Assembly (NCBI GenBank): GCA_019828565.1
Contig: JAHDYR010000011.1
Location: forward strand, 421,314-485,313
Length of the DNA: 64,000 nucleotides
Direction of reading: 5' to 3'
From: Carpediemonas membranifera BICM
Lineage: Eukaryota; Protista; Fornicata
The translations under genes and the position numbers were made by a program. Numbering within the stretch: position 1 is the stretch's first letter; every line of letters starts with the position of its first letter. Under the pieces are notes generated by a model. The model searched no databases and had not been told where the DNA came from. It saw only the letters and a program-made list of their open reading frames with translations. Shown here piece after piece: positions 1 to 34,761 of this stretch.

Positions 1-80
1 CCACACGGCATCTTGTCTCATAAAATGACTGTTTATTGCCCTAAATTTGTGCTGCGGCGTGACCGAATCGAAACGAGAAC

Positions 81-1745
81 ATGAAGCCTCACCAAAAGGC
101 AGATACTGTGATTACGGCGGGAGGAATACCAGCAATACTACTCCCCGATGACTTTGAGTCATTTGTTGCGGCCTGTGATGAAGCAGGCATTCGTTCGCGC
201 CCAGCACCACGTTCTCCGTCGCAGTGGACAAGAATGGCTTCAACAGCGAGCTAGATCTGGCCATGGTGCCTCAGCATGCGCTTATGGGGCCGACAGTGGG
301 CGATGGTATCCTTACCAACAAGAGCATCCCCAACGACGCAGTCATTGGCATATACTGCGGCAAGATCATCCCCTCGAGCCCGAACCCGGTGCAGTCACGA
401 CCTACGTGACGAGGCTCAAGCAGCCTAACAACTTTGTTGTTGACTCCGGCCGGCCTCACGTTCGGCTGTCACAAGATCAACGATGGTGCTCGCTTTCTAC
501 AACGTCGTACCGGGGACGGCTCTACGTTAATGTGCAGGTGGGGACCAGAAGAAGCGTCTTCCGTCATTCTTACTTGGCGGATCGCGCTATTGCCAAGTTC
601 GAGTACCTCTCGATCGAGTATGGCGAGCAGTACTGGCGTGGACGCAAGCCCATGGCCCTCTACCCCTGTCTGAGAAGAGCTTGCTGAGGTTGAGTATGAG
701 GAGATCAACGATGTCTTAGACGCCGTTCTTCCTAACCTAAATTGAGATCCCAACAATTCATTGCTTTCAAAAGTTCAAGGGTCCTTCTACCTGGCCCATC
801 ATCACTGGGATCCTCGTGCTTGGCGCCCACATCCCCGATGTCACCCAAAAAGATCTAGAATTTTTCCGGAAAATCGGCTTCCGACAATTTTCATTGATCC
901 CCTGACGCTCGATGGAACTGGATATTGCGTATCAACTGGTTGCTCTGAAGGAGATGAAGTCTATTGAGTCTCTTAAGATCAATTCCATCACGATTCAGAA
1001 GGAAAAGGTCCGGAAAGCTGTCATTCTTGCTTTCGCGCAGTCTCCCGCGGGTAAGAAGTGGGTAACGAGCACACTGAGGCTCTGTGCTGACTCGCTACAG
1101 CGCTTCGATCCAGTACAACGTGCAGAGCATGTTGTTTGGCATGAACTCCAACGCCACATTCAACGAGGAGGCAGCAATAGCGACTCTGCGCGTTCATGAG
1201 AGGCTCGTGACCCCGCTACACCAGTCAGTCTTCGCTAACATGGTCAGGGCCAAGCACAAGACACCGACTCTAGACGATTTCCTCGATACCGCGTGTGTCT
1301 TCCCCGACTTTTTACTGAGTTGGATCGCCTTGCCGCATGGGTGGGTGAGCGCAACCCCAGTGTCTGGGTCATCATGACGGAGGCTCGTATTACTGGCGTT
1401 TTAGATGGTGAGATCTATGAGCCGCTGCTTCGGGCCGTTGCTGACGACGTTGATAGATTCACGTTCGGCAGCCCTGAAAAGTTCCTCCAGTTAACCGACA
1501 CGAGCCTTGACTATGCCGTCGAGAGTGTCCAGATCAAGGACTATGCCAATCGTCGCTGCCTTGTCAAGTGGATCGGGTATCCTGTGCCTGTCACCGTTCC
1601 GCTGACCGATACGTTGCGTGAGCTGGAGGCTGGGGAAACCCTCGGGGTTTGTGGGCGTGCGACGGGAGATAACCTTCTGGGCGGGGTCGTACAACCGGGG
1701 AAAATTCAGAACAATCTTTTTCAGGCGTCGGGAACCCGAGCGTGA
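81..1745 (+). CDS. SET-domain (vSET-like) plus C-terminal chromodomain protein, multiply frameshifted
   Basis: Pieces in ORFs 224, 148, 434, 912, 1084, 1293. SET motifs GDGILTNKSIP..IGIYCG, KINDG and EYLSIEYGEQYW; chromodomain YAVESV..CLVKWIGYP. Confidence 0.65.
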
Positions 1746-1814
1746 CGTTTCTGAGGAGTAAATCAAGATAATATTGTCCAATGAGGCTCTTTTACATCGC
1801 CTTCTAGCTCGATA

Positions 1815-2003
1815 TTGATGTTGTTAGTGATTTTCTAGAGTACAGCACCAGTTTCGGTAATAGGGGACAGACGAGCGCAAACAACTACATGGCTCCGAAC
1901 TACACGCGTCTCGGCGTTGATATTGGTTATTAAAATGCACTGCTGGTAGCATATTGAGGGATTTCGTCATTGTACTCGAATGCACAAGTGTGCAGTTTAT
2001 GCT
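1815..2003 (+). repeat. ~190-bp inverted repeat, copy 1 (partner 8484-8672)
   Basis: ttgatgttgttagtgattttctagagtacagcacc...tgcagtttatgct is the near-exact reverse complement of 8484-8672. Confidence 0.95.
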
Positions 2004-2199
2004 TTTCGGCCAGCCGACGATATTTACTCACCACAGACAGCTGCATACAGGCTGTAGACTAGACATATACAGCAGGCTGAGTAATATAGCACCATACCCC
2101 CTACAAACCGCGAATCAACCCTCAAAGTCACATAAACATAAGCGATACGGTCGGTATATCAATCCTTTTACTCTTACTTCTTCACTGACCATCTCCCTC

Positions 2200-4200
2200 C
2201 TCTTCAGCCCGGGAGGAACCTTTGCGCAGAGTGGCGTGTCCCCTTGTCACTTCGACCGCATACTCGATTTCCCACTCGCGACACTGTTGGGCAAAACACG
2301 CCAGGGCGCTTCCGGCTGTTTTCGTTGGGCTTTAAACGCGACATGTGTCACCTTGCCCTCCTCAGACTTGCTAAAAAAACGTACATGCCGACGACTGGAT
2401 CGATCTTTGGGTCAAAAATCCCGGACAACATGGAGGTATGCAACGGACTTTCCAGTCATTGAGCACCAGGCTTCAACAGCCCACTGAGTTAACCACTTCT
2501 CCTGCATGATTGGCTTACCGATGTTGCTCTCCTCCGTGACAGTGTGTACACTGCACACTTCATGGAAAAAGTTCGTCCCGGAGACCCTTCCTCGGGCCGC
2601 CTGTACCCCCGGAGTGGCCCGCCGGTTCATCTCTATCGCTTCCTTTGTATATCTGCTCGCGGTAGCTGTCCGCCTTCGTCTCCCCGCTGCACACTGCTCT
2701 TCATTCGTCATCGTCTCCCCAGCTCTTGAACGCATGAGGCTCCGTGACGCCCTCGATCATCATGAGGCAGTGTTATACAGCTGCCGTGGGGCAGGGTTTT
2801 GTATCTGACCCACTGCTTGCTCTTTCTCCAGCTGATTGGCGACGCCAACTCTAAACTTGACTTCCCTGCTCCTCATCTGCTTCGAAGCTGGGTCGACGTG
2901 GTCGACCTGGACATATTCAACGTCCGACTCAGCCTCGAATGCCACCTCGTTGTCTGCCTCTTGCTCCTTATCTGCCTCACGCTTTCTCCTCTGACTTCTG
3001 CATTCACCTCTGACTCAGCCATCTCGTCCTCCTGCTCCTCCTCCTCTGCCCTCACCCTCCTCCACTGGCTCTTCTTCCTCCTCTGACTCCTCCTCCGGAG
3101 TCCTCTGGCCTGGCTCTTCGGGCTCAGCCTGGATGCAGGCGTCGCATTTGGTCACGTCCTCCCTCATGTGACTCCACCCTTCCTCTCCTCTGTCACCAGC
3201 TCCCTCGTGTGCTCTCGCGCTTCTTCTCCTCTGTCACCATCTCCTCCCTCGTCTGACTCCTCTGAGTTGTTATCGACATCAGCGATCTTCTGAGGGATTG
3301 TCATGAGGGCCTTGCGCTTCATGTGGATTTCGAGTCGCTCTTCCCCGTACGGCGGGGGTACTCGTTCGTGCTTGGTGTGTGCCCCGACTGGGGTAGGTCG
3401 CGGCGAAACGGCGCGGGTGTCGGGCTGGCACCCATGGAGATGTCAGCTGCGTACCCCACGTCTTGCAGCAGCCTCGTGACGGTCTCCTCCAGCTCGAGTA
3501 CTCTCTTCTGCGCCTTGTGATGGAGCACTCGTGCCTCCATCGGAAGAGATGGGAGGTCTTTGTGAATCCAGTCCTTCATTTCGAGCAGCTTGGATACGCG
3601 AAGGTATCTGTCGAACTGGACGTCGACGTGGTTGTCCCCAGCAACCGCAGCTGACTCTCGAGAGGCGCGAATGCGAAGCTCGCCGTGCACCTCCTTCTGG
3701 ACTCTATGCCACAGGACGTAGTTGCGAGCGTTATTGTCCTCCCCACTCCTTGAGCTTCTGGGCGATCTTTTCTTCGCGCCGGCGCTTGATCGCGCGTTCT
3801 CTAATCTCATCGTCGGACTCGTTGTCAAAGTCCACCTCACTCTCACTGTCGCACAACTCAGAATCGTCGACGCCGCTCTCTTCACCACTGTCCACGCCAC
3901 TCTCATCGTCGACGGGTTCTTTCTTAGCGCTCTCGGCCTTGCCCTTGCCCTTGTCCTTCTCCCTCGGTGTCAATGGCCTCAATAATGGCCTTTACGCGCC
4001 TTGCGCTTCTCCTGGCTATACACGATATCAGCCTGGTTGTCGTCAACCCACTTCGCCAGCGCGCCGGGCTTCTTGAACTTCTTGGTCCGGCGAGTGCCAT
4101 AAACTGCTTCTTCAACTTATCCTGGAGCTCCTCCTTCTCGTCCTTCGTGAGGCGGAATTTCGTGGTGATATGGTTCAGGTTGATTCCTATATAAGCATTG
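2200..4200 (-). CDS. Long acidic/charged hypothetical protein, frameshifted into ORFs 3924, 3731, 3319, 2760, 2412
   Basis: Consecutive - strand ORF fragments with coding-like E/D/K-rich composition; no recognisable domain; ends approximate. Confidence 0.4.
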
Positions 4201-5111
4201 CTATGACTACAAACGCTTCCTGATCACTAGATCGAGCAGTTTCCGTTCATCCAGCAAAACCGCGCGAAGAACAGCACATTTGGCATGATTGGTGGTTGCC
4301 TTGGTGTATGCAGCCAATATCGCATCGTACTGTTCTTGCTAGCGCTCTCAATCCACTTTTAGCAAGTCCATTTTCGGCACTATCAGCAAGAGAGCATAAA
4401 AAAATGGACATAGAGTGCCAAAAGTAATAAACTGAAACCATCCTCACGGCAACTATGTACCTAGGCGGCCCTCAGCACCTCCAATACCTTTCCGTATGTG
4501 CTTTTTTTGTCCGTCCCTACTTCGTCCCACGAACCAGAAAAAGCGCAAAGAGAGGGCTCTTTGAATATTTCCTATAACGGCAGCAGAGCATAAAACACGG
4601 TTCGAAAGGGCTGATTTTTATGCTCTCTTGCCGTTAGTTCAAGCCGAGGCACGCTTTCGGGCGAGCTCCGGCCAAGGGGTCCAGGAGTCAGCTTTTGGGG
4701 AAGGTCTGTGGTGCTATAACGTACCTCGGGACGCACTGTGGAGGCCCCTAGAGTACTCGGTCATGACATGTCAGACCAAGGGTCCCTCAAATCTGGCCCC
4801 CATTCAGGATGCTCCCCCTAAATGTTCCGTTGCAAGCGTCTGACGGGCGTTCTCTGGATACCGACCAAGATGGAGGTCACGTGGATCAACGGACGATAAT
4901 TACGGTATTCTGGCCATGCCTGGTACTCTCAAATCATCTATACTGATCAGTGCTCCATTTATAGTTCATATTGTTTGGTCCTGATGGACTTATAGTTGTT
5001 GATGTTGTTTAGGGATAATTGTTGCTTTAACGATGCTCTGCGCTCGCTTACTGATGTTTCTTAGTGATATGTGCATGCCTACTACGTTAAAGCTGCCAGT
5101 ATTCTTTCTAT

Positions 5112-5156
5112 TCTTAAGTTCGCCATTTCAGTCTCGTTGCGAGCATAAAGTGCACA
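5112..5156 (+). repeat. 45-bp direct repeat of 8454-8498 (TCTCGTTGCGAGCATAAA core)
   Basis: 3 mismatches in 45 bp. Core sub-motifs also at ~6910 (TCTCGTTGCGA) and 4391, 4586, 4616 (AGAGCATAAA, last one inverted). Confidence 0.9.
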
Positions 5157-5407
5157 TTGTGAAGGAAATTGGGTGGTTATATAATGGATACAGGGCAGGA
5201 AAAGGTACACGAATGCCGTCCTGAGGTTTGGCATGGGATACTGATCTCATACGTCAAAAAAATGGGCGGTGGTATTCGAATTTCAGAATTTCGGCATGTC
5301 CGAATTCCGAGGCAAGCGGGTAGGGTGTACAAAACCTGGTCTGGGTCCCTACTGGAGCTAATAGATAACAGTATCACCGTGTATTCGGTTTTCAGAAATA
5401 TAACTTG

Positions 5408-5607
5408 TGTTGGTATTGCTATTTCAGAATTACTTCCAGTACCGGAGATTGTCTTAGAATTTGGATGTTCATGACTACTTTAAAATTTTAAAAAGTTCCC
5501 ATGAACTCCACTCCAGCTCAGGATTGCGGATCTGAGCCAAGTTTAGGTCGAATCCAAGTATTTGATAATTTTTGTATGTACGAAATTCTGAAATTGCAAT
5601 ACCAACA
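5408..5607. repeat. 24-bp inverted repeat pair (5408-5431 / 5584-5607) just upstream of the YR-like gene
   Basis: tgttggtattgctatttcagaatt vs aattctgaaattgcaataccaaca (1 mismatch); partial copies at 5271-5293 and 5381-5399. Confidence 0.85.
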
Positions 5608-5621
5608 GAAAAACTCGTGTT

Positions 5622-6823
5622 ATGGAGGTTCTAGCTGCAAATAACGACGATATTGTTAAGCGCTGGTCTGATAGAGGTTCAGTGAAGACGCGTAGTGTGT
5701 ACAAGAAGCACCTGGAGGACGTTTTTGGCCAGCATTTGCCAGGAAACAGGCGCTGAAATGCAGAAGGGCATCGAGATTGTCCGAAGCGACAACGTTACGA
5801 CTTATTTGGCGCATTATTTCGCTACAAAGACGCCTGCTATGGCTAAGAGGATCGTTTCGGCTGTTCAGTCTTTCCGGAACTTCGACTTGCCACATCCCGC
5901 GAAGCCGTTGTCCTGGAAAGAGGAGGAAGAGGTGTCGCCTGCATCAGTTGAGAGTCTCCCCCAGCCCGTATGGCGCCATTGCCATTCTGCTCAACCAGAC
6001 GGGCTGGGAGTATTCGTATCTCCAAGGTAATCTCCCCGATGCGATAGACCTTACCTCGTGCCCGAGCTGGATGGGCTTTGGCACGCTCAAATCGGGATTC
6101 CCGCAGACCAGTGCTGTATCGGAGGCGCTCAAGGTTCAGGGGTTGACGGTTCGCATGCTTCGCTTTGCGCAGCGGATCGACGTGTCCACCGATAGGATGC
6201 AGTCTATCGGCACGCTAGAGCGCCGCGGCAGACCGCAGGAGAAGCCCTCAGAAGGTCATTAAGGACAAGCGCATCAGCCTGACCGATGAGCAGTTCAGGC
6301 ACCAGTTGGCGTCCAGTCACTTAACGACCACGCGGCGCCCAACGATCCTCGATCTCAACCCGGAGATCCGAAGCTCTGCCGACCTGGTGCCGCCGATGCT
6401 CGATGACTGGCTTTTACAACAGGCTCAAGGCCAGAATGATCGAGCTTCACGATACTAAGAAGAAAGAGAGGCAAAAGCGAGGCTGACAAGGAGGCGGAGT
6501 TCGGCTCGCCGACTCGCGAGACAGAGATGCCAGAGGGCGAGAGAGAGGGCGATACTGACGAGGAGGCGGTGTCCGACGAGCCAGCTTACCAGGCAGAGTG
6601 GATGCACTACGAGGTGCCAGCTCGCGAGGAGAGCGCCTTTGGTGAGGAGGTGGACTTATGCAAGAGTGCCGATGAGGAACCAAAGATCGACCACGACGAG
6701 CATGGCGGGGAGGTGGCGGGCAGAGATGGTGATGGGGAGATTCAAGAGAACGTGATTGATGAGGAGCGCTCAGAGAGCGATACTGCCGACAGTATCGTCT
6801 TTTTCCTTCATCTGACATTGTAA
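5622..6823 (+). CDS. Degenerate tyrosine-recombinase-like protein (XerD-like core-binding domain, reduced catalytic domain) with acidic tail, frameshifted
   Basis: SVKTRSVYKKHL and DNVTTYLAHYF..KRIVSAVQSFRNF resemble the SAM-like core-binding domain. AIAILLNQTGWEYSYL resembles LLxxTGxRxxEL and GLTVRMLRF resembles HxLRH. Confidence 0.5.
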
Positions 6824-6979
6824 AGAGGAAGAGTTTATGATTGGAGCATAGCTGATGTCCATAAACACCATTCATAAGCCAGTCCTGTCTTGTTTTCCAC
6901 TGCTACTTCTCTCGTTGCGACGCACAGCTAGCTGTCGCGAAATGCACTTTAAGACCAATTTTCACACAGCTACCTGTGC

Positions 6980-8280
6980 ATGGTGTTCGAGCTAGATAGC
7001 GACAAGCTGGAGCGACTTACTTCCTTACCTGGTAATAGTAGACAATATCTGCACGACTTTGAACCTGAAAAGCTGCAGGTCGTGATCAAAGTTGATGAGC
7101 ATTATGATATGGAGGTTCCCACCCTGCTAGCGCTCAAGGACAGTCCGCATGTCCTCCCTGTCGTCGATACAGGTTTTTGTCGACCGTGATCCAGCCTTCA
7201 TGGCTCCTTTGGTCAACTGTACCCCCTTCGCTGACATCTGCCAGGCTCACTCCAGCGTGCAGTTCCGCTATGTTTCGCATCTGCTGCAGGCAGTATGCTA
7301 CATGCATGACCACGGGGTTGTCCATTGCGATATTAAGCCAGACAACTTCCTCTTCAGCAAGAGTCAGAAGGGATACCTCATTGATTTTTGGGTCTGCAAT
7401 GAGGAAGCCGGCTAATGGCGACGACAGGTGGGCCATACAACTGAGATTCGCATCCGAGTATCGCGGCACCCATGGATATTTGCCCCCCAGAGCTTTTCTA
7501 CGAGTACCTTGTCTCGCGCTCAGTGATTCCTGCTGCACGCGACACCTCCAAGCTCGCGCGCATGACGGCAGGGGCTCTTTCCGTCACTTCTTATGTCGTG
7601 ACACCTGCATCGGACATTTACTCTTGCGGTGTAGTCATTTTTGATGCTCTTTTACGGTCTCCCCAAGTCCCCCTTTGCCGCGAAGGTGACTGACATGGGT
7701 GCAAACATGGCGCAGATCGACAACAAGAAGAAGAAGAAGATGCTGAAGCTTGGTAGCTTGCTGAACTGGTGCCAATTCTATGGTGGGCAGTTGCAGTTGT
7801 CACCTCAGGCACAGACACATTTCAAAGATTGCCTCGAGTGTGTCAACGTGAACTCTGAGCTCCCGATTCGCGGCACCACGCCACCTACTTGTCTCAGCCT
7901 GTACGACCTGGCAATGCAGATGCTCCACTTCGACCCCTGCGAAGCGTCCCACTGCTGCCGAATGTCTTGACAAGCTCAAGGTCATCATGCGCGTGCATGA
8001 ATGCGTCGCCAAGCCGAGTCCGCTTCTGTTAGATGATACAGAAGAGGTCACCCTGTCTGCAGCTCAGCGAAAGAGACTGACCGACTGCTGTCAGCGAGGG
8101 TTTGAGGGTCAAGTCTTCTATCGGCGCTGCATAGTGTGTGGTAGAGACCTTCATGGACGCGAGAACGTCAGCTGTGACACATGCCACAAGGGATACAGGC
8201 AGGTGAGCACCAATAAGTGCGCAAAAGGTGTGCGCGGAAGACTGCACAGGCAGTTTATTGCGATGATTGAGCGGACGTAA
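6980..8280 (+). CDS. Ser/Thr protein kinase with C-terminal Cys-rich (PHD-like) finger, frameshifted
   Basis: VVIK, HCDIKPDNFLF, LIDF(G), GTHGYLPPE, SDIYSCGVV, QMLHFDP..RPTAAECL; C-terminal CIVC..CDTC. Confidence 0.8.
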
Positions 8281-8483
8281 AAGAGATTGATACTTTCTGT
8301 GATGCAGGAATGAGATCAATGCTGCTGACAGGTCTCGAGATGGCAGAGGTGCTGGAGAAGAGAGAGCAGAAAAGGCATCAGAAGTAAATGAACGAGGTAA
8401 ATTCCAGTTCGCCGGAGATGATATCCTTCCTCGTACGCGGCATGTGTCTTGGGTCTTAAGTTCGCCATTTTAATCTCGTTGCG

Positions 8484-8672
8484 AGCATAAAATGCACACT
8501 TGTGCATTCGAGTACAATGACGAAATCCCTCAATATGCTACCAGCAGTGCATTTAATAACCAATATCAACGCCGAAACGCGTGTAGTTCGGAGCCATGTA
8601 GTTGTTTGCGCTCGTTTGTCCCCCTATTACCGAAACTGGTGCTGTACTCTAGAAAATCACTAACAACATCAA
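8484..8672 (-). repeat. ~190-bp inverted repeat, copy 2 (partner 1815-2003)
   Basis: Reverse complement of 1815-2003. Confidence 0.95.
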
Positions 8673-8996
8673 CTCCTTTTTCTCCGCAATGCAGATGAGA
8701 ATGCCTATTCTCGCGATCTATAACTACCAATCATGTTTTCATTCTTTACTCATACTTGCCACAGATGCACACATCCAGTGAGATCTCTCCTTCCTCATGG
8801 ACATCGATGTCTAACCATTGCCCGTCAAACACGAGCCCTACCTGCCTCAACACCTTCTTCCATAGACCATCCACTTGACCTTCAAACAGAGGTAACAGTT
8901 TCTGACAGTCTCCCTCGTCCAATGTTCCAGTGCCCTCGCTCCGAATACGGATCCAGTGTTTGGCGTCCTTGCAGCAGCGATGAACGCGCATTGTCT

Positions 8997-11304
8997 TCAG
9001 ACGTATTTGGTGGGGGAACGTCTGTTGACTGTCGCCCATACGAGACGACGCCACGGAGGAATCGGTAAAAACAACTCGACCTGCTCCTTCAATATCGTTC
9101 TCTCAAGGACCATCTGGTTGCGCCTTAAGTGTACTCTACTTTCCTGATTGCCAATAAAGTCGCGCTCGAATGACTCCTCAATAATCCGGCCAAGTGGGAC
9201 TCGGATTTTTGACTGAATCTCCGGCAACACAGCAACTCGCGCTAAGCCATGAAGTGTGTCGATGGAGGGAGCCTTCTTGGCTACCTTAGACGGCGGCCGG
9301 ATTGGAATAGACTCCGACACGGTGCTGGTCGTGCTCAGACACATTGTCAGTGAAAAGAGGTGAACAAGCAACGCTGTCAGTCGATGCCAGGTGATAATAT
9401 CATCTGTGGCCTCCTCGTGAGAGTAATAATGCTCTTGCAGGTAGGCAACGAGTCTGAAAAAGTGGCTGAACGGGGGAGGGAATGCCATGTAGAGACCGTT
9501 TCCAATTGACGCGATCATCTTCCTCCCCTTCACTTGCTCATTACAGCCAGTCGTGCGACTGGGAGGTTCAAACTTAGCCAGCCTGGCGAGGTCAGCGTTT
9601 CTGGCCTTCTTGGTCTTGATTTCCTCCGGGGTAGAGTCTGGGTCGACCTCAATTGGCTTGAACATCCGACAAATGTTGTGTATCAAGGAGACGAAGTCAT
9701 GACTGAGGTGCATGATCGGCGGGACAAGGAAGATTTTGCCCCTATCGAGAGTTGGGTCATCCGAGTTCTCGAATAGGCTGGGCATGATGCACTTATTCTT
9801 CTTGTTGTAGAACGACCCCCACTTCTTCTCTCTATCCAGGACTGTCTTGTCCTCAACAGACATCTTCTTCGCATACATCACGTCTGCAATCGTGTTTCGT
9901 GGGGTGAGACCGAATGGGCTCCAGGCCTTGTTGTCAGCATGTACCGAGCTGAATGGAGAGGGATAGCTGCCGCCAATCAAGGTTCCACAGACTTTTGACA
10001 TCGCTGGGTGGTCTGCGATGAACATAACGCGAGTGACACGGCACAGGAGACCGGTATTTCTCACCTCAAGTGACTCGCGATGGGTACTCTCGACTGAGCG
10101 CTCGATGAAGTCGAAGAATTCTCCAATGCGCTTCTCTGGTCCGTTGTACTCGAGTATGCGGAAGGGTGGTGTTCCGCCTGACGGGAAGACTTTGCCGGAG
10201 ACATCGATAAACCGAACCTTCACAGATGTAGTCAACCCTCGCCATCCATCGACCCAGACGAGAAGATCAAGCGGCACTGTCTGAGTCTCTTCAGCTTGAG
10301 TCTGCGCTGTCAACTGCTTGCCCACGTTCTTACGAGCAGCCCTTGACCTCTCGAGATCGATAGGCGAAGCCACCGCCTGGCGATAGTACCGCATGAGGTC
10401 AAACTCAGCGTGTTGCACATGGGAATACCTGCCGCTAGACTGGAGACGCGGGTTGAGACCGGCTCTCTTCATCACGTCATTATGTGCAGTTCGCTTCATT
10501 GCCGATTCGTAGAAGATGCACACCGTCGTACCTCTGAGCACTTCAGTGTTATAGTCGTCGCCGTCGAATGTAGCGTTGACTTGTTCGAGGTCTGCGTCGA
10601 CGTGGGTAATCAGGTCGAGGTCATACTCGCGGTGATCCTTGTCCGTCCTCTTTGCTCGTGTCTCTTGAGTGATCGCCATGGGTATGTAGCCCTTTAGGGC
10701 CTTTTTCAAGTTCCTATGCGACTTGACAATGGTCTCAACGTCTGCGATGTTCCGAATGCTGCACTGAAGCGACTTGACTTGGTTTGTGACCTGATTGATG
10801 TTGATAATGTCAAGGTTGAGTCTCTGTGCAAGGGCTTGCATGATGTGAATCTCGTCATTGACTGCATTCACGCCGATCGTGATGGCCCTGAGCTCGTTGG
10901 ACACCTGCAGAAGACGTTCAGTGTCAGCAATACGCTTACGTAGACGAGCATTCTCTGCCTCGAGGCCGAAGCTATCAGAATGCAGAACATATGCACCAAC
11001 GTAAAGGTGACTGGGACCAGAGCGGTGTGCCTTCTTCTCCCTTTGAGATGCTAGTGGATGATGGCGCTGGGTAGAGATTGCTAGAAATAGCCTCACGCGA
11101 TACAGCGCCGATATTGATTAGTTCCTGCGCGATGCGGGCTAGCTCGAGCCTTTGCTGGTGTTTGGAGGTATCAAATCCGTTAATACGGCGATCCACTGCG
11201 TCAATCGAGAGCCAGACGCTGCAAAGGATGGTATTGATGTCATCAGTGCCCTCCGGAGCATAGATAGATCCGTTAGACAGTTTCCACTTCAGTTGAAGCG
11301 CCAT
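8997..11304 (-). CDS. RAG1/Transib/Chapaev(CMC)-like DDE transposase (ORF 8997-11096; likely N-terminus in ORF 10975-11304 via frameshift)
   Basis: Ordered motifs LLVWVDGW (D1), MFIADHPAMSKVCG..GGSYPSPFS (D2 plus degenerate CxxC), VPPIMH, and TLHGL..VPLGRIIEESFE (E; compare Transib TVHK..LPIGQLSEEAQE). N-terminal coiled coil. Confidence 0.7.
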
Positions 11305-11343
11305 CTGTCAGTCGCTCTTTCAAGAATTCTAAAGATCCTAAAA

Positions 11344-12609
11344 ATGCGTGACTTCGAGAAGATCATCTAATGCCAGCCACGGAACTAGAGATGAAGCGTG
11401 GAAATGAAGGAACTACTCCGGACACCCGAGAGACGAACTCTCAGAAACGCAAGCCGATGGTCAGGGTGGAATGACGCCGCAAAGAGCGAATGCAGGTCGG
11501 CTCTCATGATTGGTATGCTCAAGGCATTCTTTTTGCATCACCGTTGATGTGTTTGGAACGGATATGACTGGTCTATCTGTCCGTAAGGTGGCGAATGCCT
11601 ACAATCACATCATCTCGGTGTACTTGCAGCCCTGCCACCCTGATCCGACATTCTTTGATGGTATCAAGTCCCTCACGGCTGTATCGCAGGGTAGGCTTGT
11701 CATTGGGCATGTTAAGGAGTGGGCAACCCAGTCTTGCCACTGCAACATCGGCATTTCTGATCAGGCTCCTTCGAGAGTGTTTCATAACCTTTCTCGGGCC
11801 CCCAACCCGGTGCGATCGGAGCTTCTGACCGCGATGAAGAAGATTTTCACGAGAGTTGGCCTGGACGTCCCCCAGAATTTTTGATTCGCGTCCTCTGTCC
11901 CTTAATCTGGTGGACCTTTCGGCACCCGACATATTTACTGGTCGGACGAAGACGTTTTTCAAGACAGCAGAAATCCCCCATTCCGTGCCGCAAGTGAAGC
12001 AGGAGGTGAAGGTTGACCCCGTTCGACCCTCTGAGTCTATCTCTAAGCGTAACGTCATGCTACTCGATGACGTCCATCGCATGACACAGCGCATGTCGGA
12101 AGATCTCTCTCAGCTCAAAAGAACGGCCGGTAACCGCTGATTCAGACTCTGACGATGATGGAGAGAACCTCCTTGACTTGCAGAAGAGGATGCTTGCCTT
12201 CTGTTGCGGCCATTGCCACAGCTTGGACTGGGTTGGCAATCTCAACACGTCAAAGTTTGTCTCATGTGGAGAGTGCGGCAGGAACTTTCATGACAATTCC
12301 GTTTGCGTGCCTGCTCGTCCGGAGAAATGTTCAAAGACTGCCAACTGGACGAAAGAAGCCAACAGAAAGAAGTCCTCGTGGAAGTTCACATGCCAGGCTT
12401 GTGTCCAGGAGAAGACTTGTTTCGCATGCCAGAAGAACGCCTCGGTATATCATTGTCGGATGTGTGGGCACTGGTTCTGTGGTAACAAGGGCTGTATGGG
12501 CACCACTGCCGTGAAGGTCGTCATTGACGGCGTGAATATTCCCAAGATCCGTCTTTGTGACGATTGCCTTGAGAACTTCAAGTCGGTGGTTCAACAGTCG
12601 GAGCAGTAA
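11344..12609 (+). CDS. PHD-finger plus second Cys-rich zinc-finger protein, frameshifted (ORFs 11510, 11856, 12178); start uncertain
   Basis: CGHC..FVSCGECGRNFHDNSVC..WKFTCQAC (C4HC3) followed by CFAC..CRMC..FC..C..CDDC; acidic DSDSDDDGE hinge before the PHD. Confidence 0.7.
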
Positions 12610-12874
12610 AGATTGAATCTTTTCAAACATATTTTCATGAAGATAGATCCAATGAAACTATGTACCATGAGCCCGATTGCTCAGTGATTATGTGATAATC
12701 CTGTGTGACCCAGGACAGCGTGCTCCTGGAATCAACAGGGCACAAAACACCCTGCGTATTCCGGTAGCACACCGTTCTGACTCATACGTCCGTCTCTGGT
12801 TGTCGTATACAGGTCTATTTACGTGTTTGGCGATGGCGCTCCCTTAAATCTGCTTGAACGGCGTGTCGTGGCTG

Positions 12875-13138
12875 TCAGTATGCTGCAAATGTCGCAGCGA
12901 GAAAGGAGTCACCAATCGCGTTCAGCTTTCTTGTTTCTCGCCTGATACTGCTCGTAATATCGTTCAAGCGTGAATCTATGAAGTAATGGGACTGAATGGC
13001 CTCTATTGCGTCAATTTCTTGCGTAATCGTTGTTGAATGGCCTAGAATAGATGTTGCAGCTGCTTCCAGCTCCTGTTGCATGCTAAATGCTGTGTTTTTG
13101 GACAATTGGTCGTGTTCAGGCAGATTTTTTTCGTGCAA
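12875..13138 (-). CDS. Small hypothetical ORF
   Basis: 87-aa ORF with helical composition; no motif. Confidence 0.25.
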   Translation of the reverse strand: MHEKNLPEHDQLSKNTAFSMQQELEAAATSILGHSTTITQEIDAIEAIQSHYFIDSRLNDITSSIRRETRKLNAIGDSFLAATFAAY

Positions 13139-13462
13139 AGTGCAGGCTAATACGCGCCCTTAAACTGTGGGATCAGCCGCTGGGTAAATATACTGAGAAA
13201 AACCATATAGCTGAGTTCACTGTCTTGTGCTGAATACGGTGGCGCCATTTATTTCTCTGAATCGCTAAGTTTTGTCAGCGTTGACCGCGCACGACCGGTC
13301 GTCCTTACGCGATGACACCCAGCCCATCTTGTAGGTCGGGTGGCCATACCTCGCGGCCTTGCTTGCTTTTCTTTGACGAGCAATATTCCCTGAGTAATAG
13401 CCTCTCCTTTTCTTCAATTCGACTCTAGCCAAGTCAAAAAAACAAGAAATCGACCATATCTC

Positions 13463-13566
13463 AAAATCTAACAGGTAGATTCACTCTGAAAGTGATTATG
13501 CGCATATGTACCTCCTTTCAACTACTCACATAATCACTATCGTAGTGAATCTACCTGTTAGATTTT
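13463..13566. repeat. Subterminal hairpin: 38-bp inverted arms, 28-bp spacer
   Basis: aaaatctaacaggtagattcact-ctgaa-agtgattatg (13463-13500) vs cataatcact-atcgt-agtgaatctacctgttagatttt (13529-13566); 3 mismatches. Confidence 0.93.
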
Positions 13567-13749
13567 CTGTTATTGTCCATTTTATCGTTTCGTCTTAACC
13601 TGCACGGCGAAATGCTCAAACCAGGCAAGGAGTCAGAGCCAGAGCTTCTTTCCATGCTCTAAGTACATCATATGGACTCTCAAGAAGACCTTCGTTTATC
13701 TCTAAATAGCTTAAATTTAATGAATACTTCATTTCTGAGCAAGAAATTG

Positions 13750-13809
13750 TAGATTATCTAGCGTTTTGAGGTCGAAGATAATCTAGGGTTTAGCAAAGAT
13801 AATCTAGGG
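13750..13809. repeat. Terminal/subterminal AGATAATCTAG repeats at the putative right end of the DNA element
   Basis: aagataatctaggg at 13775-13788 and 13796-13809; near-palindromic tagattatctag at 13750-13761. Confidence 0.75.
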
Positions 13810-14074
13810 ATGTTGACAGCATGTTGCCGCCGCCAACGGAAGCGACGAGGAAGAAGAGCTCCTACGCATCGGAATGGAGCACGAGAGCGACGAACCAGAT
13901 CAAGAGATGCATGAGTAACGAGCCATACCAAAGCAGTGGAGGGAAGAGTGCAGAGTCTAAAGGGATGTGTATATATAGCACGTTAGTGTAGGACTAGGTG
14001 AAGTGAAGGCGCCGGAATAGGTGCAGCGTTGGAGCCCGCCAGAAGGGCTGTACTGGCGCCAATGCCCGGGTGAC

Positions 14075-18018: not shown

Positions 18019-18990
18019 GAGGAAAGCCCTGGGTGAAGACAAGGCACAGGGCGGAACATTCCTGGAACCGGCGGGAGGTGTTTTCCCCCCACATGTTCCG
18101 GTAGCGCCAGGCGGAGGGAAGGCTGCAAAGGACCACTAAGGGACAACCGCATACAACAAGCACGAAATAGGGAAGGCCTGGCAAAACAGCTGGGCCAGTA
18201 GGGCGCAAGCGTCCGGACAAGCAGTCCGGCGCATCCCTCCGGCGCGCAAGGGGGTACCCCCTCCCCACACAGTGGGGGCGCACCAGGAGGATGATGCATG
18301 GCAGACTGGCGGAGGTACTGGATGACGCAAGAAGCTACCCACTCCGTCGGTAACCTGCCGGGAAGGCAGGGCCATCCTGATGTGGCCCGGCGCCTAGCCA
18401 GGAACACTGGAAGACGTGGCAACCGCCCCTGGGAGCTCCCCCGATAATGGGAACCTGGAGTGAAATCGGACAGCGCTAGATGAGCCCGAACGCAGCCGGC
18501 AAGTCCGTGGAAGTCTACCTACGCGGCGTCGGTGGGTTCCTAACCCGGCCCAGCTGGTACGGCGAACTCTAGACCCGACCCCGCCCTGGCGGGTGCCTGA
18601 AACATGGCGAGCGGGTCGAGGAAACTCCAGGACCTCCCTAGGGGACCCGGGGGAGAGGAGAAACGTACGGAAGGTCCCCTGACAGCAGCGTGCAGGGCAA
18701 GGCTTTGTAGGTGCCAGGCAGACCTGGGACCCAAAGGGCCCCTAAGAGTAAGACCTGGGTTAGCCTAACTTTGGGGGTATTAATGTGGCCATGTATAGGA
18801 TCCCTCTAGCGTACCAGCTAGGCCTTGACGGCCGTTGTTCACGCCCTCTTAGGAAGTGTTAGGTGTGCTCTGTAGAGGTACCAACACGCTTAGGCGTTCC
18901 TCGAAGGGGTGACACAAACTGTGACATTCAGCTTACACAGCAGGACGAGTAGCAGGACACATTAAATTCTTTCTTCTTCTTTCTTCTTCT

Positions 18991-20511
18991 GTTGCCCTGT
19001 TCATCGAAAGAGATGTCGCCTCTCGTCAGGCCGAAGATCTCGCCTCCCCGGCTGACTGAGATGAATGTAAGTGCAGCGAACAGCGCTACCTGGAACGCTT
19101 TCGGTGAGGAGCGTCGCCTGTCGACGACCTTGCGGACCTGGGCTCTGGTCACCGGTAGTGCGCCTCCTGTTAGGCCGTCGAGAGATGCTACGTTCTCCGC
19201 ACTCTTGATGATCTGCCTGGCTTCTGGCGGAGGTCGCCAGTTGGAGACGAGTGGAGCCGCTTGACAGATCCAGTAGCCCTTTCTGTGGATACTCTGCGGG
19301 CCAGTGGTCTCGCCCTCGGCGAGGAGGAATGCTCTGAGTTGTTCGGCGTCGGAGAGGGCTGCCTGTCGCGATAGGACGAACTTAGAGACCCAGCCAGCCG
19401 CTGAGCGGCGCGATGACTCGTTTCGGAAGTGAGATAGCCTGTCGTGGCGGAGGAGTTCGTCGAACGGGTCTTGACGATCATCGCAATCATTCTGATCTTT
19501 CCTTGCCTCTCGGTCCAGGATAGCTCCGTGTTGAGCATGTGCGAGGAGTGGACTCTGAGATACATCTTGTGTTGGGACAGCCGTTTCAGCGCTCTGACTT
19601 CGGGTGAGTTGAGATCGGGGAAGAGGAGTATTGCCGCTGACCTCCACGTCCGAGGGGACGTAGTCGGGGTCTGAGGCGTCCGAATCTTCTCCAGACGACG
19701 ATGTGCCGCTCCCAAGAGCGCTGTCGGCGGAGCCAGATAGATCCTGGCGCCGGTCCAGGAGCGCTGGAAGCCGTGATCGTCGAGGGACCAAGCTTTCCTG
19801 ACGAATCCTGGCAGTGCGAGCTTCTTGTCCGGAGATGCAGTGACGTCTATCTCCGCCGGACCCCACTTGGCCATTATCGTCTCGAGTACCTCGCGGGGTG
19901 AGTGCCAATCGAGCTTTGCGAATCTCGACAGCCGGTCCGCCTGGACATTGAGGTGCCCTGCGATATGGAAGCAGTGAATATCGACATTCTTCGTGTTCGC
20001 CGTGGTGAAGATATCCTGCAGGAGTCGAATGGCCGTGTCGGCGAGACATGGGGAGCCCTGGCGGTTGACCCATGCGATGGCCGCGGTGTTGTCCGAAAAG
20101 ATAGCTAGTTGGGTCCTGGTGCGCTGGGTTGGGGTGAGCTTGATAGCCTGGCCAATCGCGTAGAGCTCCTTGACTCCGATATGAGAGTCTCGGAACTCGG
20201 GAGGAAAGCGGCCTTGAGCCGAGCGGCCCTGGTCGCCGTTGAATAGGCAGGCGCCCCACGCGAAGGAGGACGCGTCGGATGCGACCGAGAGCTGGAGTTC
20301 GTCCTTGATCTCCCAGTCTGCCCTGGCCTGAGCGAAGGGTCTGGATGGACGATCTCTGAGCAGCGCTAGCCAGCTGTTGAGCTGGCGACGCATCTGCTGC
20401 GAGATGTGAAGCGTCGGGGCGGGATGTAGGGCCTGGAGTGATCTGAGCTGGAGCCTGGCGAACTGTGTCGTACTTGCGAAGAACGAGAGGCGGCCTAGTA
20501 GGCGTTGCCAC
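18991..20511 (-). CDS. DIRS tyrosine recombinase frame (N-terminal part, cut by LINE-A insertion)
   Basis: ALPVTRAQV...ALFAALTFISVSRGGEIFGLTRGDISF (first catalytic Arg box); overlaps the RT/RH frame as is typical of DIRS. Confidence 0.8.
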
Positions 20512-20629
20512 TCGGTTGCATCGATCCTGCCGGCCCTGAGGGCCTGCTCGATTGATGTTGCATAGCGATCGGCTCTGTCCTTGGAAATCTGCAGTGTCTC
20601 GGCGGCTGTGTTGATGGTGACTCCTAGGT
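19188..20629 (-). CDS. DIRS pol C-terminal part: RT thumb, RNase H, Dam-like methyltransferase domain
   Basis: LLGRLSF; SDASSFAWGA, HIGVKELYAI, FSDN, HIAGHLNVQADRLSR; WGPAEIDVTAS..SW..IYLAPP. Confidence 0.9.
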
Positions 20630-20630
20630 G

Positions 20631-23600
20631 GCAGCTTGGTGCAAGACAGGAGTCAACACGGAGGGCAGAGGCGCAATAAGGGCACAAGGACAGGAGACGC
20701 CGCTCAGCAACAAGCTCGTCTTCTCTGACGTCAGGGCCAGGGTGATCAATGCCACCAGCCGCCGCCAAAAGAGGGACAGGGAAGAAGAGTCAGACAACGA
20801 GAGCGGCGCACAGACCAGCCAAGAGGAAGACCCCAAACCCAAGGTCGTGTTGACACAAGCGGAAGGAGTGAGCGCCAGAAGGGGCCTTGGAGCCGAGCTT
20901 GATCAGCAGGAAGAAGAGAGCATACCCCGAGCATCAGAGGGAAGTGCATCAGCAGGGAGCCTACCGGAGGCATTGCAGAGTCAGGGTCAGAAGAAGCTCA
21001 TCCTCGGTTCTAGCGACTTCGAGTGTGGAGATCCTGGGAGTGAGAGGGCAGGGATCAGTGCGGTGCCGACAGAGGGGGGGCTCGTGCTAGTGGACGTCGA
21101 GACGGGGGAGGTCGTTGGCCATGGCCACGGCCTCTTCTATGAGCCCAACCTGCCGGCCAACAAGGTGGACCAGAGCAGATACGCGACGTGGGCAGTGACG
21201 GGGATTCCCCCAGCGACGTTCGTGGAAGTGGACACAGGGGAGGTGCCGATGGACTATCAGCAGCACTTCAGCAGATTTAGAGAGTGGGCCACGCGGCTCG
21301 CAGCCAAGCTGAGAAAGAAAGAAAGAAATTTATGGTGCTTGGATTCTGACCCCGGACTGAGCTTGTTTCCCGTTGTCTTGGAGCTGAGTGCCCCGGGGTA
21401 CTGCCTATTTCCCGTGGCAAACTGGTCAGCAGCGTTTGCCTTGGGCTTTCGGTGCTACTGTCTCCGCGGAAAGCCGATTCCAATCGCCCCAGAGGCCCTG
21501 CGGCCATCTCCGTGCAAATATGCTTTCCTGTCTCCCTGAAAGTCCGGCAACTATCCGGGGAGCCTGGGGGTCTGTCCTCGGGGCATTGACAGGCAGGATC
21601 GTCCTGCAGAACCTTGACTATGACACTCCTTGCTTCCCTGCAGTCCTTGTAGAGCCGTTCAGCCACGGCACCCTCTCGTCTGTCCGGTTCCCCAATTCCA
21701 TGCCCCCTCGACTCTGTTAAGAAGCCTACCCGAAGGCGGGGAAAGTGACTAAGTCCATGCTGTCTACCCCGGTTAGGTGGCGTGGGTCAGGGCATGGGTG
21801 GTGTACCCCCAGGCACTAGGCCTGGTTGTCCTGTTACCCCTTACAACATTTCGCTTGCACTACATGTCCTTGGTTTCCCATGTCGTTAACAAGGGCGGCA
21901 GGGGCACCTGTGCCCCTCCGACCCCCGTGGCCAGTCCCTGCAGTTTCCTTGGGGTCCCAACGAGTGGTGCAACCATATGAATATGGATTTCCTTGACCTT
22001 ATCCTTGCTCTGTCCTTGTTGCATGTCCTTTCTTTCTTATTTCTGATCTGTCCTTCCCTGTTCTTTCCTTGCAGTCGTTCCTTCCCTTGCTTTGGTTCCT
22101 GGCTACCGGGATACGTGGGGCCTTTCCTCACTGATCCCAGGAGCTTAGCACCCAGCGAGGGTGGTCCATGGCTGATTCCTTGTCCATCCCTTCCCGGTCC
22201 TGGAGTCAGGGGTTCATGACATGCTTCTATTCCACCTTGAAGCTGTTGTAAACCTTTGCCAGTTCCCGTAGTCCTGCCGTGAGGCCTTCCCAAATGTCCT
22301 CCGAGCCCCATATTATTAGTTGCAGCCAAGCTGAGAGACAGAGAGACCAGGGAGAACTGGAAGCTAGTCCTTCATGCCAAGGGCGTCCACATGGAGAAGT
22401 TCCTCCTGACGAACGAGGTCAACGGGCTCAACAGGGACACCAGGGACTTCTTTAGAATGAGGCTGGTGGACGATAGCGAGCTGGCCGACGCCATCGAGGA
22501 GCTCGCCCCGGATAAGGCAAGAGAGTACAGGGCAAACTACGAGATCAAGAACTACAGGGAGATGGCAGATATATGGGCCAGCCAATGGCAGCGCAGGGAG
22601 CTCCCGAAGGGGGCCTGTCCGTACCACAGGCACACTGCAGGGTGCTACCATTGTGCGCTGGCAGATGCAACGTTGTTCGCGGCGAAGGTGTGGGGCATGA
22701 TGCTGAAGAAGATGAGCACGCCGGATCTGGAGAGTGCGATGGGTAACGCTTTCAACAGCATGTATGACACGGTCAGGGACGCAGGGATCAGAGACGACCT
22801 CTGCGGAGGCAACGGAGTAGCGTACAGGCGTGAGACCTTCAACATCTTCGGAGGGCACCCGTACGGCAACAGCAGGGACCTAAGCAGGGAAGAGGGCGAC
22901 CGCATCCTAGTGGTCCCGGACAACGATCACTGCTATGGGATCGGCTTCGGATTCAGCGAGGTCATTAAGGGTATGAAGGGCATTCTATTGGCCCCAACCA
23001 CGGTCATGGAGAGAGGAGTCACCACGAGAGTCCCCATATGGTCGATCCATGAGAACACGACCCACATTCAGAGACTGATGTTGCAGGGAAGAGCTGGCAG
23101 GGCAGTTACTAGGGACGAGGACATCGTCACCATCGCGATGGTCTACAGCTGGTGGCCCTCAAGGGAGGATACTGCTCATCAGGGTCAGCCGGGAGTCCAC
23201 GACCTGGCAGAGAGCGTCAGACGCGAGGAGAAAGCCATAGCGAACGTCAGGGCACCCCCAGGGTATAGCGCAACCATCAGAGCGGCCTTCATCCCGAGAG
23301 ACTGGGGGCTGTATCAGGGTCAGAGAGGCAGGGACGACACTGGGACGGATGAAGAAGGTGGGGACCCGTATGGTGTCCACGACCATCCCGCCAGAGGATA
23401 ACTGCAAGATCACCCAGAGGCCGACGGTTAAGTACATCCCGTCAAGAGATGGAAAGGAGGAGAGACCCTACACGGTCGATTACTCGGACATGGGCATAGA
23501 GGGATCTATCAGACGGCTCACCGAGATGATTGGCACGCCGGTCGGGCCAGTAGGCCGAGATGACCTCTATACCAACAACCGCCGAGCCGACGGAACCCTC

Positions 23601-24311
23601 AGAGACGAGAGAGAGCCCAGAAACAACGGCGTCCATCGGTGCGACAGAGAGCGCAGGGACGTCAGGCCTCATCATGAGGACAGAGAGCGCAGGGACGACG
23701 GGCCTCACCATGAGGACAGGGAGCGCAGAGAGGTCAGGCCTCACCACGAGGACAGAGAGCGCAGGGACGACGGGCCTCACCATGAGGACAGAGAGCGCAG
23801 GGACGATCAGGGCAGATACTCCGGAGAGAGCAGACGCCGCTCACCCCCTCATGGGACCGGCAAGAGGAGTGGCAAGGACAGGGCGGTGAGCTACACAGGG
23901 GCTGGAAAGAGGGGCAAGCTCGACGGCGACGCCCGTTACGAGGCTGGAAGCAGACAGTCGAGTGACAGCGACGCGGAGAGGGACGAACTCAGGAAGGAAC
24001 TTGATGAAGCCAAGAAGCTGATTCTCGCACTCAGGGCCAGGGACAGCAGGGAGGAGGAGCAGGCGACGCCAACCCCAGCACCGGCTGACACCCAGGGAAA
24101 CCAGGGTACCGGCAAGGAGCACAGGGTAGTCCGTCACAAGAAGAGGACTCGGACAAAGAGGTCTCGCAAGCCGAGACAGCTAAACCAGATGGAGCTAGTG
24201 GCCCAGATCGTGTCAACGGTGATGAAGACCATGCAGCAACAACAGGGGATGGCAACCGAGAACCAGAGCGATGATGGCAGTGACAGTGGCAACTCAACGG
24301 AGACCGATTAA
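20631..24311 (+). CDS. LINE-B ORF1 (interrupted by LINE-C at 21315-22321; one frameshift near 23305)
   Basis: Removing LINE-C and one TSD joins RLAAKLR|DRETRENWK..HMEKFLL in frame. Continues into ORF 23349-24311 across a G5 run. Confidence 0.8.
21315..22321 (-). mobile_element. LINE-C: 5'-truncated antisense copy of a LINE-B relative (end of ORF2 + 3' UTR)
   Basis: TSD GCAGCCAAGCTGAGA at 21300-21314 and 22322-22336. The - strand encodes GSEDIWEGLTAGLRELAKVYNSF* (compare LINE-B GSEEIWEGLRAGLRALAKVYDSY). Ends caccataaat(ttct)n. Confidence 0.93.
23643..23806 (+). repeat. 36-bp tandem repeat x4.5 within ORF1 (DRERRDxxPHHE)
   Basis: gacagagagcgcagggacg..ggcctcaccatgag units with two alternating variants. 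Confidence 0.95.
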
Positions 24312-24357
24312 GCAGGGTAAAGTGGTATTCTTTGAGAGTGATAGTGACAGTTGTCAG

Positions 24358-24560
24358 TTCTTTTCTTTTAATCCAACCCTGGCTCCCACCCAGGGTCCGG
24401 CATTAGCTGAAATGCACTGCCGGTGGGCTGTGGCGGCAGCCAAAGGGGGGTCACGCCAATGCGCCCCCTCCTAAGTATCCCTGCCCGAAGGTAAGGATGG
24501 TCACCAGGGTAACCCATAGTTGGCCCGCCATGGGTAACCGGAGCCGGCACGAAGGCCCCG
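24358..24560 (+). other. Conserved multi-hairpin inter-ORF RNA structure (IRES-like candidate), LINE-B copy
   Basis: Same ordered hairpin series as 14075-14290, with different loops and altered stems. Confidence 0.55.
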
Positions 24561-24628
24561 TGACGGGACAAGGGCAGATTGCAGGGAATTTCCGAAAATT
24601 CGCAGGATAGGAAAGACGGAGTACAAGA

Positions 24629-29574: not shown

Positions 29575-29600
29575 CGACGGGAATTGATGAACAGAGGTTG

Positions 29601-30155: not shown

Positions 30156-30237
30156 TCTGTCCGCATAAACTGCGTGACTCGCCTGACCGGCGAAACACCT
30201 TTTGCCCGGAGTGAGGCTATCGCATCGCCCTCCGCTC

Positions 30238-30324
30238 TTTGGCGTATAAAGCGCTGTGGATGGTACTTCATTTAGATTAAATACACACACTAAATACACA
30301 TCAACTGATTACGAAATCACAACA
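30238..30324 (-). repeat. 3' LTR (87 bp)
   Basis: Identical to 34675-34761; TGTTGTG...CGCCAAA on the - strand. Confidence 0.97.
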
Positions 30325-34658: not shown

Positions 34659-34674
34659 AGCTCAAATTGATCAA

Positions 34675-34761
34675 TTTGGCGTATAAAGCGCTGTGGATGG
34701 TACTTCATTTAGATTAAATACACACACTAAATACACATCAACTGATTACGAAATCACAACA
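34675..34761 (-). repeat. 5' LTR (87 bp)
   Basis: Identical to 30238-30324. Confidence 0.97.

Follow-up and report, generated by a model that had tools for sequence, protein, structure and literature searches.

Gene content and layout of the element

The window analyzed here is a stretch of 64,000 nucleotides from Carpediemonas membranifera BICM (assembly GCA_019828565.1, contig JAHDYR010000011.1, positions 421,314 to 485,313, forward strand), and this report concerns the large DNA element with which it begins. We consider it probable that a single large cut-and-paste DNA transposon of Carpediemonas has its right-hand part at positions 1 to ~13812, with a transposase of predicted RAG1/Transib fold and a cargo of genes whose products are predicted to modify and read proteins, probably histones. 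The features recognized in this block and at its border were the following:

1..~13812: probable right-hand part of a large DNA element, with transposase, SET, zinc-finger and kinase genes and a terminus
81..780 (+): SET-domain gene, frameshifted; SET core at ~299-636, 3' limit approximate
912..1780 (+): frameshifted gene with a chromodomain-like segment (1512-1610)
1815..2003 (+): left arm of an internal inverted repeat (190 bp) that follows the chromodomain-like gene and has no flanking duplication
2412..4290 (-): frameshifted acidic/charged open reading frame(s) (ORFs) from a six-frame reading; limits approximate, no meaningful Pfam match
5112..5161 (+): 51-bp direct repeat, 92% against 8454-8504
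5622..6823 (+): frameshifted gene with a helical N-terminal and an acidic C-terminal part
6980..8280 (+): Ser/Thr-type protein kinase whose C-terminus bears a Cys finger; interrupted by 5 single-base frameshifts
8454..8672: copy of the 51-bp repeat and, overlapping it, the internal inverted repeat's right arm (8484-8672); both follow the transposase gene
8749..11304 (-): DDE transposase, 851 aa, of predicted RAG1/Transib fold, with conserved D352, D431 and the E710/E713 region (numbering of the annotated protein P0001); 3 single-base frameshifts
11344..12609 (+): frameshifted gene with C-terminal PHD-like and FYVE-like fingers, head to head with the transposase gene
13447..13582: subterminal hairpin, 54-nt arms, 85% complementary
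13752..13812 (-): right terminus, a 12-nt motif twice plus a degenerate third copy, laid out as in the related metagenome loci L002 and L003
13813..18018 (+): flank outside the element, a non-long-terminal-repeat (non-LTR) retrotransposon with endonuclease and reverse transcriptase (RT) from 14646

The GC content of the block (1-13812) was 51%, vs. 56% and 58% in the next two zones of the window, and within the block the spacers (45%) were poorer in GC than the genes (54%, with gene limits set by us). An inverted pair of 190-bp repeats (1815-2003 and 8484-8672, 97% identity) follows both the transposase and the chromodomain-like gene, and the 51-bp direct pair is a further internal repeat. Both the AT-rich spacers, in a block unlike the host half of the window, and the shared internal repeats had been described in an earlier note made from the sequence alone, and both were borne out. 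The possibility that 1815-8672 is an ordinary inserted element with terminal inverted repeats (TIRs) was rejected, as no flanking duplication was found. A short palindrome lies at the inner ends of the 190-bp repeat (1981-1994 and 8493-8506). In addition, a 9-nt motif occurs five times in the spacers of the element (at 4392, 4586, 4617, 5141, and 8483) vs. once in the other 50 kb, and is possibly a regulatory or binding site.

All eight frameshifts in the transposase and kinase genes are +1, none of the two genes contains an in-frame stop, and seven of the eight shifts lie at runs of ≥ 4 bases, while such runs are found in 6-12% of 14-nt windows in the background. The assembly was built from nanopore and Illumina reads, with genes predicted after repeat masking, as stated in the genome paper (PMC8516963). 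A look-up of sequencing runs gave none for 4000-13809 and none of RNA. Given the +1 shifts at base runs, the lack of in-frame stops and this type of assembly, the frameshifts are likely assembly errors or very recent slippage, and the transposon family is therefore probably young or active.

The transposase and its predicted fold

The long minus-strand ORF of the window matched three protein clusters, all from C. membranifera, and 832 of 848 aligned residues were identical to the intact annotated 851-aa protein P0001, in agreement with the DDE transposase-like ORF of the earlier note. Among 1.84 billion representatives searched, 18 relatives were retrieved; the source was looked up for 14 of them (all except P0019, P0021, P0024, and P0026), and P0006 (57 aa), which sits in a transposase cluster and looked unrelated, was excluded from the counts. 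Including cluster members, C. membranifera has 18 annotated transposases of this family on 12 contigs, and the remaining relatives are unnamed records. No relative was found in viral contigs (0/53 candidates) or in prokaryote genomes (0/150).

By sequence, the transposase had no match in Pfam or in the PDB (Transib/RAG1 core), and none of the 18 aligned members matched the transposase families of Pfam (E 0.1), a database that contains a Plavaka model. The evidence for the fold comes from an AlphaFold model (predicted local distance difference test (pLDDT) 81, predicted template-modelling score (pTM) 0.74), with which Foldseek returned RAG1 (E 6e-8) and HzTransib (E 7e-4) as top matches. Comparison with VIA, a re-examination of Foldseek's matches only, aligned 439 residues of the model with RAG1 (Z 13.3, root-mean-square deviation (rmsd) 5.8) and 402 with HzTransib (Z 12.6, rmsd 5.9), at about 10% sequence identity to RAG1/Transib. 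Language-model features from the ESM Atlas ranked RAG1 clusters at 0.90-0.91 for the transposase (148-156 shared features), which we treat as a lead only. The RAG1/Transib fold of this DDE transposase is thus a prediction from its model. D352 and D431 are conserved in 17 of 18 alignment rows, and the EExxE region, which we take to contain the catalytic E, in 14 of 18. An invariant His, forming H-x2-H in 13 of 18 rows, lies ~175 residues ahead of the site before the last E that was picked by eye as the place of an H(3-4)H pair. A tree of 21 rows (unrooted and without outside references) resolved several deep subfamilies.

Cargo genes and related elements

The intact copy P0033 of the kinase matched Pkinase at E 2.4e-23, so that the kinase with a Cys finger proposed earlier was confirmed, and the window gene shares 423 of 426 residues with P0039. 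A metagenome scan (598 pattern matches) gave at least three related loci, designated L001, L002, and L003, and the linkage of the element's genes was examined through these loci and through accession neighbours in C. membranifera.

L001 is a complete 11.6-kb element (2171-13799) on a metagenome contig, with a transposase 27% identical to that of the window. Its TIRs measure 74 nt (93%) and end in CA..TG (CATAC..GTATG), and between them lie six genes: transposase, OTU-like, a 334-aa caspase-fold gene, a 274-aa gene, SET, and PHD/FYVE-like. The element splits a Gypsy pol gene, and overlapping the two flanks by 2 bp (GC) reopens the RNase H frame; of the overlaps tried (0-6 bp) only 0 and 2 fit, and with the ends taken one base further the junction is also compatible with a blunt insertion. 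L003 carries transposase, SET, and kinase (with a Cys finger) genes within a 12.6-kb stretch, as well as caspase-fold, OTU-like, and RCC1-like genes, and its kinase and that of the window element are mutual best matches when compared against three host kinases of the window. The transposases of L001 and L003 fall in clades separate from that of the window. L002 and L003 are identical across 3398 bp; the L003 contig ends at the terminus, while L002 extends into a Gypsy integrase. At all three insertion sites seen, the neighbour is another retrotransposon, a pattern that could stem from targeting or from survival bias.

These relatives were used to identify the window's SET and zinc-finger genes. 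The SET proteins of L001 and L003 matched the window SET gene in tblastn at E 2e-4 and E 0.008, respectively, and the 422-aa protein of L001 matched the window zinc-finger gene at E 6e-7; in the control run, the L001 SET and finger genes had no match in the reversed window. With a two-row profile of the L001 and L003 SETs, 14 of 16 PDB matches were the G9a/GLP SET (domain-wide alignment, best E 0.023), with collinear SET-N and SET-C motifs, and the window pieces align to the same family. The N-terminal half of the window SET by itself gave only two PDB matches, both to a bacterial SET protein (E 0.8). Judged from these alignments, the SET domain of the window is real at the family level. The earlier note had described a fusion of a vSET-like domain with a chromodomain; the SET part stands, whereas vSET was absent from the matches of the SET searches and the SET genes of the relatives are stand-alone (267-270 aa). 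Read in one frame, the SET/chromodomain region had no homolog among 7995 candidates of 303-966 aa, and exact look-ups of window ORFs were empty (5/5).

A chromodomain at 1512-1610 is weakly indicated by sequence: the segment ranked second of 2694 against a profile of two Gypsy chromodomains (E 0.067; best reversed control E 2.4), and has Y, W and Y positions in common with them, which we take to be the methyl-lysine cage. Pfam gave no match for this gene, and of five weak PDB matches two are, by name, chromodomain entries. In the double zinc finger (12202-12579), the first finger is PHD-like by eye, with Pfam PHD at E 0.7 only, so that the proposed PHD protein holds as a double-finger protein and its PHD label by eye. 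No Kelch match was obtained in the PHD-like genes of the window and L001. The N-terminal part of the gene at 5622-6823 had been labelled tyrosine-recombinase (YR)-like; its single-frame pieces had no match in Pfam, PHROGs or PDB sequences and catalytic residues were not evident by eye, so that the label is without support from any search.

Three further kinds of gene were recognized in the relatives:

L001:8643-9647 (-) and L003:7164-8144 (+): caspase-fold gene, 34-37% mutual identity, His and Cys at matching strands
L001:5349-7181 (-), L003:4068-4943 (-) and L003:8174-8992 (+): OTU-like genes
L003:83-1558 (+): RCC1-like propeller gene, with an upstream motif in common with the kinase, 123-aa, and transposase genes

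The caspase assignment is based on the L001 334-aa protein, the low-confidence model of which (pLDDT 38) had caspases as top Foldseek matches (E 6e-5); a sequence profile of the pair returned ATP synthase noise only, no counterpart was found in the window, and viral contigs gave no relative (0/142 candidates). The OTU-like label refers to a putative cysteine protease motif common to L001 and L003, for which database searches gave no match; in L003, a gene of its own (272 aa) corresponds to the N-terminus of the L001 protein (E 0.001). The RCC1-like gene may be cargo, because its upstream motif is shared with other genes of the element. A distant RCC1-like host gene also occurs in the window (54731-56371, E 3e-4).

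At the right end of the window element, two copies of the 12-nt motif, 21 nt apart, reach 13809, in line with the repeat-rich terminus noted before, although the end is probably a few bases further. The outer base is most likely 13812 (5'-CAT), within a range of 13809-13826; the candidates 13812 and 13815 both end in TG. The L002 terminus begins with CAC (CACAC) followed by a motif repeated at 22 nt, compared to CAT and a 21-nt repeat in the window if the end is at 13812. The CCCTAG-like end recalls piggyBac, which was rejected, as there is no TTAA flank and the fold is another. The first six bases of window positions 1-8 equal the L002 end read one base longer, a resemblance that is probably coincidental; the window start does not match the right terminus and the SET gene begins only 80 bp in.

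Other copies of the genes exist. Besides the 18 annotated transposases, the kinase has 10 annotated copies at nine other loci, six of them 95-99% alike. Taking accession order as a stand-in for gene order, three of the nine kinase loci have a family transposase within three accessions (nominal P 1.4e-4; the null was uniform and took no account of repeat clustering). At J8273_7203-7210, a split kinase is flanked by two family transposases, and at J8273_7645/7647 a pair of subfamilies stands side by side on a 46-kb contig.

Interpretation, alternatives and known systems

The reading as the right-hand part of one transposon, which we hold to be probable, draws on the relatives: in L001 the transposase is enclosed by the TIRs together with SET and PHD genes, and in L003 it is linked to SET and kinase genes, which supports the earlier proposal of a giant transposon with a chromatin-related cargo. 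It is likely that the whole of 1-13809 is one fixed unit.

Several observations weigh against it. No left end, matching inverted repeat or target duplication of this copy was seen in the window, and no plus-strand copy of the terminal motif occurs within the window above chance. L001 lacks kinase and chromodomain genes, no PHD gene was seen in the part of L003 covered, and annotated copies of the SET or chromodomain-like gene were not found (candidates of 303-966 aa and exact look-ups). A wider six-frame run produced one match to the reversed-window control (E 0.002, 13 aa), and the second zinc finger is by Pfam FYVE-like (E 1e-5, under the curated cut-off) rather than a histone reader. Linkage of the cargo across copies was upheld in part only: the transposases beside the three kinase loci are 25-70% identical to that of the window and belong to other clades, an annotated kinase is missing from the surroundings of all three closest transposase copies, and for six of the nine kinase loci no family transposase is listed up to 60 accessions away. 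Missing neighbours weigh little, because genes were predicted after repeat masking and repeat annotation is incomplete; nesting, or an exchange of cargo where intergenic repeats such as the 190-bp pair are shared, would explain the mismatch of kinase and transposase. Finally, the C(2)C motif expected after the second D and ahead of the last E is absent from all 17 rows with residues at this site, which was set by position; the first Cys is retained in six of the 17, and the lineage of the window reads S-P-F-S.

The same linkage data could instead point to a mosaic of at least two elements of this family, in which nesting or recombination brought a transposase-PHD module (~8700-13812) together with another subfamily's SET/chromodomain/kinase arm. 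The transposases next to the 95-99%-alike kinase copies belong to three other clades and do not include any of the three closest copies, one kinase is truncated beside a transposase fragment as nesting would produce, two subfamilies are neighbours on the 46-kb contig, and the 190-bp repeat links both halves. However, the region 8280-8749 contains no left terminus for such a module, SET with PHD (L001) and SET with kinase (L003) naturally accompany this type of transposase, and, with repeats masked before gene prediction, absent neighbours say little. We regard the mosaic as unlikely, although it is the most serious competitor.

A separate 6.9-kb cassette (1815-8672), moved or inverted by site-specific recombination through its own YR-like protein, would account for inverted arms that are 97% identical and lack a flanking duplication, and the block does contain both the kinase that changes neighbours and the ORF that looked YR-like by eye. 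In contrast, that label found no support in any search and its catalytic residues were not evident, and intergenic repeats at gene starts and ends are shared in L001 and L003 too, where no YR-like gene was seen, which makes a cassette highly improbable.

The other branch of the earlier proposal, fusion of a virus with a transposon, or else capture of a transposase by a Teratorn- or Polinton-like DNA virus now present as an endogenous fragment, fared worse still. SET, kinase, and protease genes are also borne by DNA viruses. This resemblance of the cargo, together with compact genes with no evident introns and shared upstream motifs, speaks for a viral origin, and the sequence upstream of position 1 is unseen. 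However, the complete L001, with six genes, has no viral hallmark in Pfam or PHROGs (one 274-aa gene had no identification), viral contigs gave no relative of the transposase (0/53 candidates) or of the caspase-fold gene (0/142), and no viral structure was matched at E 0.001. Capsid, packaging ATPase, pPolB, and herpesvirus core genes, the marks of Polinton- or Teratorn-type virus-transposons, were not recognized in L001 or in 1-13812. With L001 complete and free of hallmarks and the viral searches empty, the viral branch is unsupported, and we judge it very improbable. Host genes adjoining a transposase by chance are hardly conceivable: SET, kinase, and zinc-finger genes are common in hosts, but the kinase is multi-copy and near-identical, the block's composition is unlike that of the host half, and homologous cargo inside the L001 terminal repeats largely refutes it.

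Returning to a single transposon with cargo, its mode of action may be outlined as follows. The DDE transposase would bind short motifs that recur every 21-23 nt close to both ends, excise the element and insert it with a 2-bp stagger (GC in relatives). The cargo would be dispensable for catalysis and likely aids the persistence of the element. For instance, the SET enzyme could methylate histones on or near the element, and the PHD-like and chromodomain-like proteins could read such marks and steer expression or insertion into repeat-rich chromatin, while the kinase, with the caspase-fold and OTU-like proteases of the relatives, might target host proteins of silencing or signalling. The cargo appears modular, with different subsets held by different subfamilies; recombination at shared intergenic repeats, or nested insertion, likely moves genes from one subfamily to another. 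That the SET and reader cargo acts on histones is probable; chromatin manipulation as such is suggested by domain families only.

Within the literature, the CMCT clade comprises EnSpm/CACTA, Mirage, Chapaev, Transib, Plavaka, ESTA, Lanisha, and RAG1, with C(2)C and H(3-4)H motifs, mostly 5'-CA..TG-3' ends and target duplications of 2-5 bp, according to Kojima 2025 (PMC12730594). The Carpediemonas family and its relatives resemble it in the predicted RAG1-like fold, the DDE residues, the CA..TG ends (both in L001, and L002) and, if the L001 junction is read as a 2-bp overlap and not as blunt, the duplication length, and we take the element to work like a DNA transposon of this clade. It differs in the missing C(2)C and in having no sequence match to member families; where an H(3-4)H pair was sought by eye, only single His residues occur. 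As C(2)C, a defining feature, fails, no named superfamily was assigned. Transib and RAG transposons are the best structural matches and share the CAC end with L002; the family has six or more genes and ~10% identity to Transib, for which the target duplication is given as 5 bp (PMC4411706). An overlap of 5 bp does not fit the L001 flanks (2 bp, or 0), so that by duplication length the element is not a Transib; the predicted fold agrees with the earlier RAG1/Transib-like label. A gene with a PHD finger stands next to the transposase, reminiscent of the PHD in RAG2, although no Kelch-PHD gene like that of ProtoRAG/TransibSU was recognized.

The giant red-algal Plavaka of Bostrychia with SET cargo are the nearest known system: they too are large DDE transposons from the EnSpm/CACTA-related clade, and one of their several accessory genes contains a SET domain. 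They are reported as 17.4-19.1 kb long, with accessory genes (a DNA adenine methylase-SET fusion, a ParB/2OG-oxygenase protein, and a gene without known function) that move between transposon families (bioRxiv 10.1101/2025.02.11.637652). The Carpediemonas-type cargo is different: stand-alone SET, PHD/FYVE-like, kinase, and chromodomain-like genes (plus caspase-fold and OTU-like in relatives), with no DNA-modifying enzyme recognized. The termini of L001 (CATAC..GTATG) and L002 (CACAC) also differ from those given for Plavaka, TGT..ACA (A) or CATCA..TGATG (B) (PMC12730594). Capture of SET and OTU-like genes is on record for HarbingerS, oomycete MuDR, and Helentrons (PMC12730594, PMC4067079), the transposases of which are unrelated and usually carry one such gene, compared to a set made up of writer, readers, kinase, and proteases here. 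With giant SET-carrying Plavaka of the same broad clade in print, the earlier suggestion of an undescribed kind of system was given up, and what is new is a lineage whose cargo is of another, protein-modifying type. Among the matches listed in the literature searched, the coverage of which leaves out Repbase Reports and most subscription journals, none described this family, and 'transpos' is absent from the main text and the 10 searchable supplementary files of the C. membranifera genome paper (PMC8516963).

Transposons with their own epigenetic tools are rare and mostly have one such gene, or DNA-modifying enzymes, while the Carpediemonas family has several protein-modifying or protein-reading genes, conserved beside transposases only 25-28% alike. 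A caspase-fold gene in a DNA transposon was not reported in the literature searched. With this family, the RAG1/Transib/CACTA clade gains a deep branch, detected by structure, in a metamonad, and intact copies (P0001, and L001 with both ends) open two questions: by what means an enzyme of RAG1 fold can act when the zinc motif of its clade is missing, and whether histone writers and readers borne by a transposon serve to overcome silencing or to guide insertion. A bolder version, which we put forward as speculation and rather doubt, would see a superfamily-level RAG1-fold lineage without the zinc site of its clade, with an exchangeable protein-level toolkit (SET, PHD, chromodomain, kinase, caspase-fold, OTU-like, perhaps RCC1-like) in which the PHD protein is a RAG2-like partner aiming the transposase at marked chromatin inside retrotransposons, i.e., a convergent RAG1-RAG2 in a metamonad.

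Beyond the element, positions 13813-35700 are occupied by LINE, DIRS-like, and Gypsy retrotransposons, with host genes beyond 35700. The DIRS-like retrotransposon (18928-21990 and 28195-30308, minus strand) has RT and RNase H with a weak Dam hit, and a tyrosine recombinase by eye; it is seemingly interrupted by a LINE (~22283-28076) with 78% inverted repeats on both sides. Dam-bearing retrotransposons have been reported from C. membranifera (bioRxiv 10.64898/2026.05.21.726589). The Gypsy element at 30238-34762 contains a chromodomain and is a recent insertion, as its short LTRs (88 nt) are identical.

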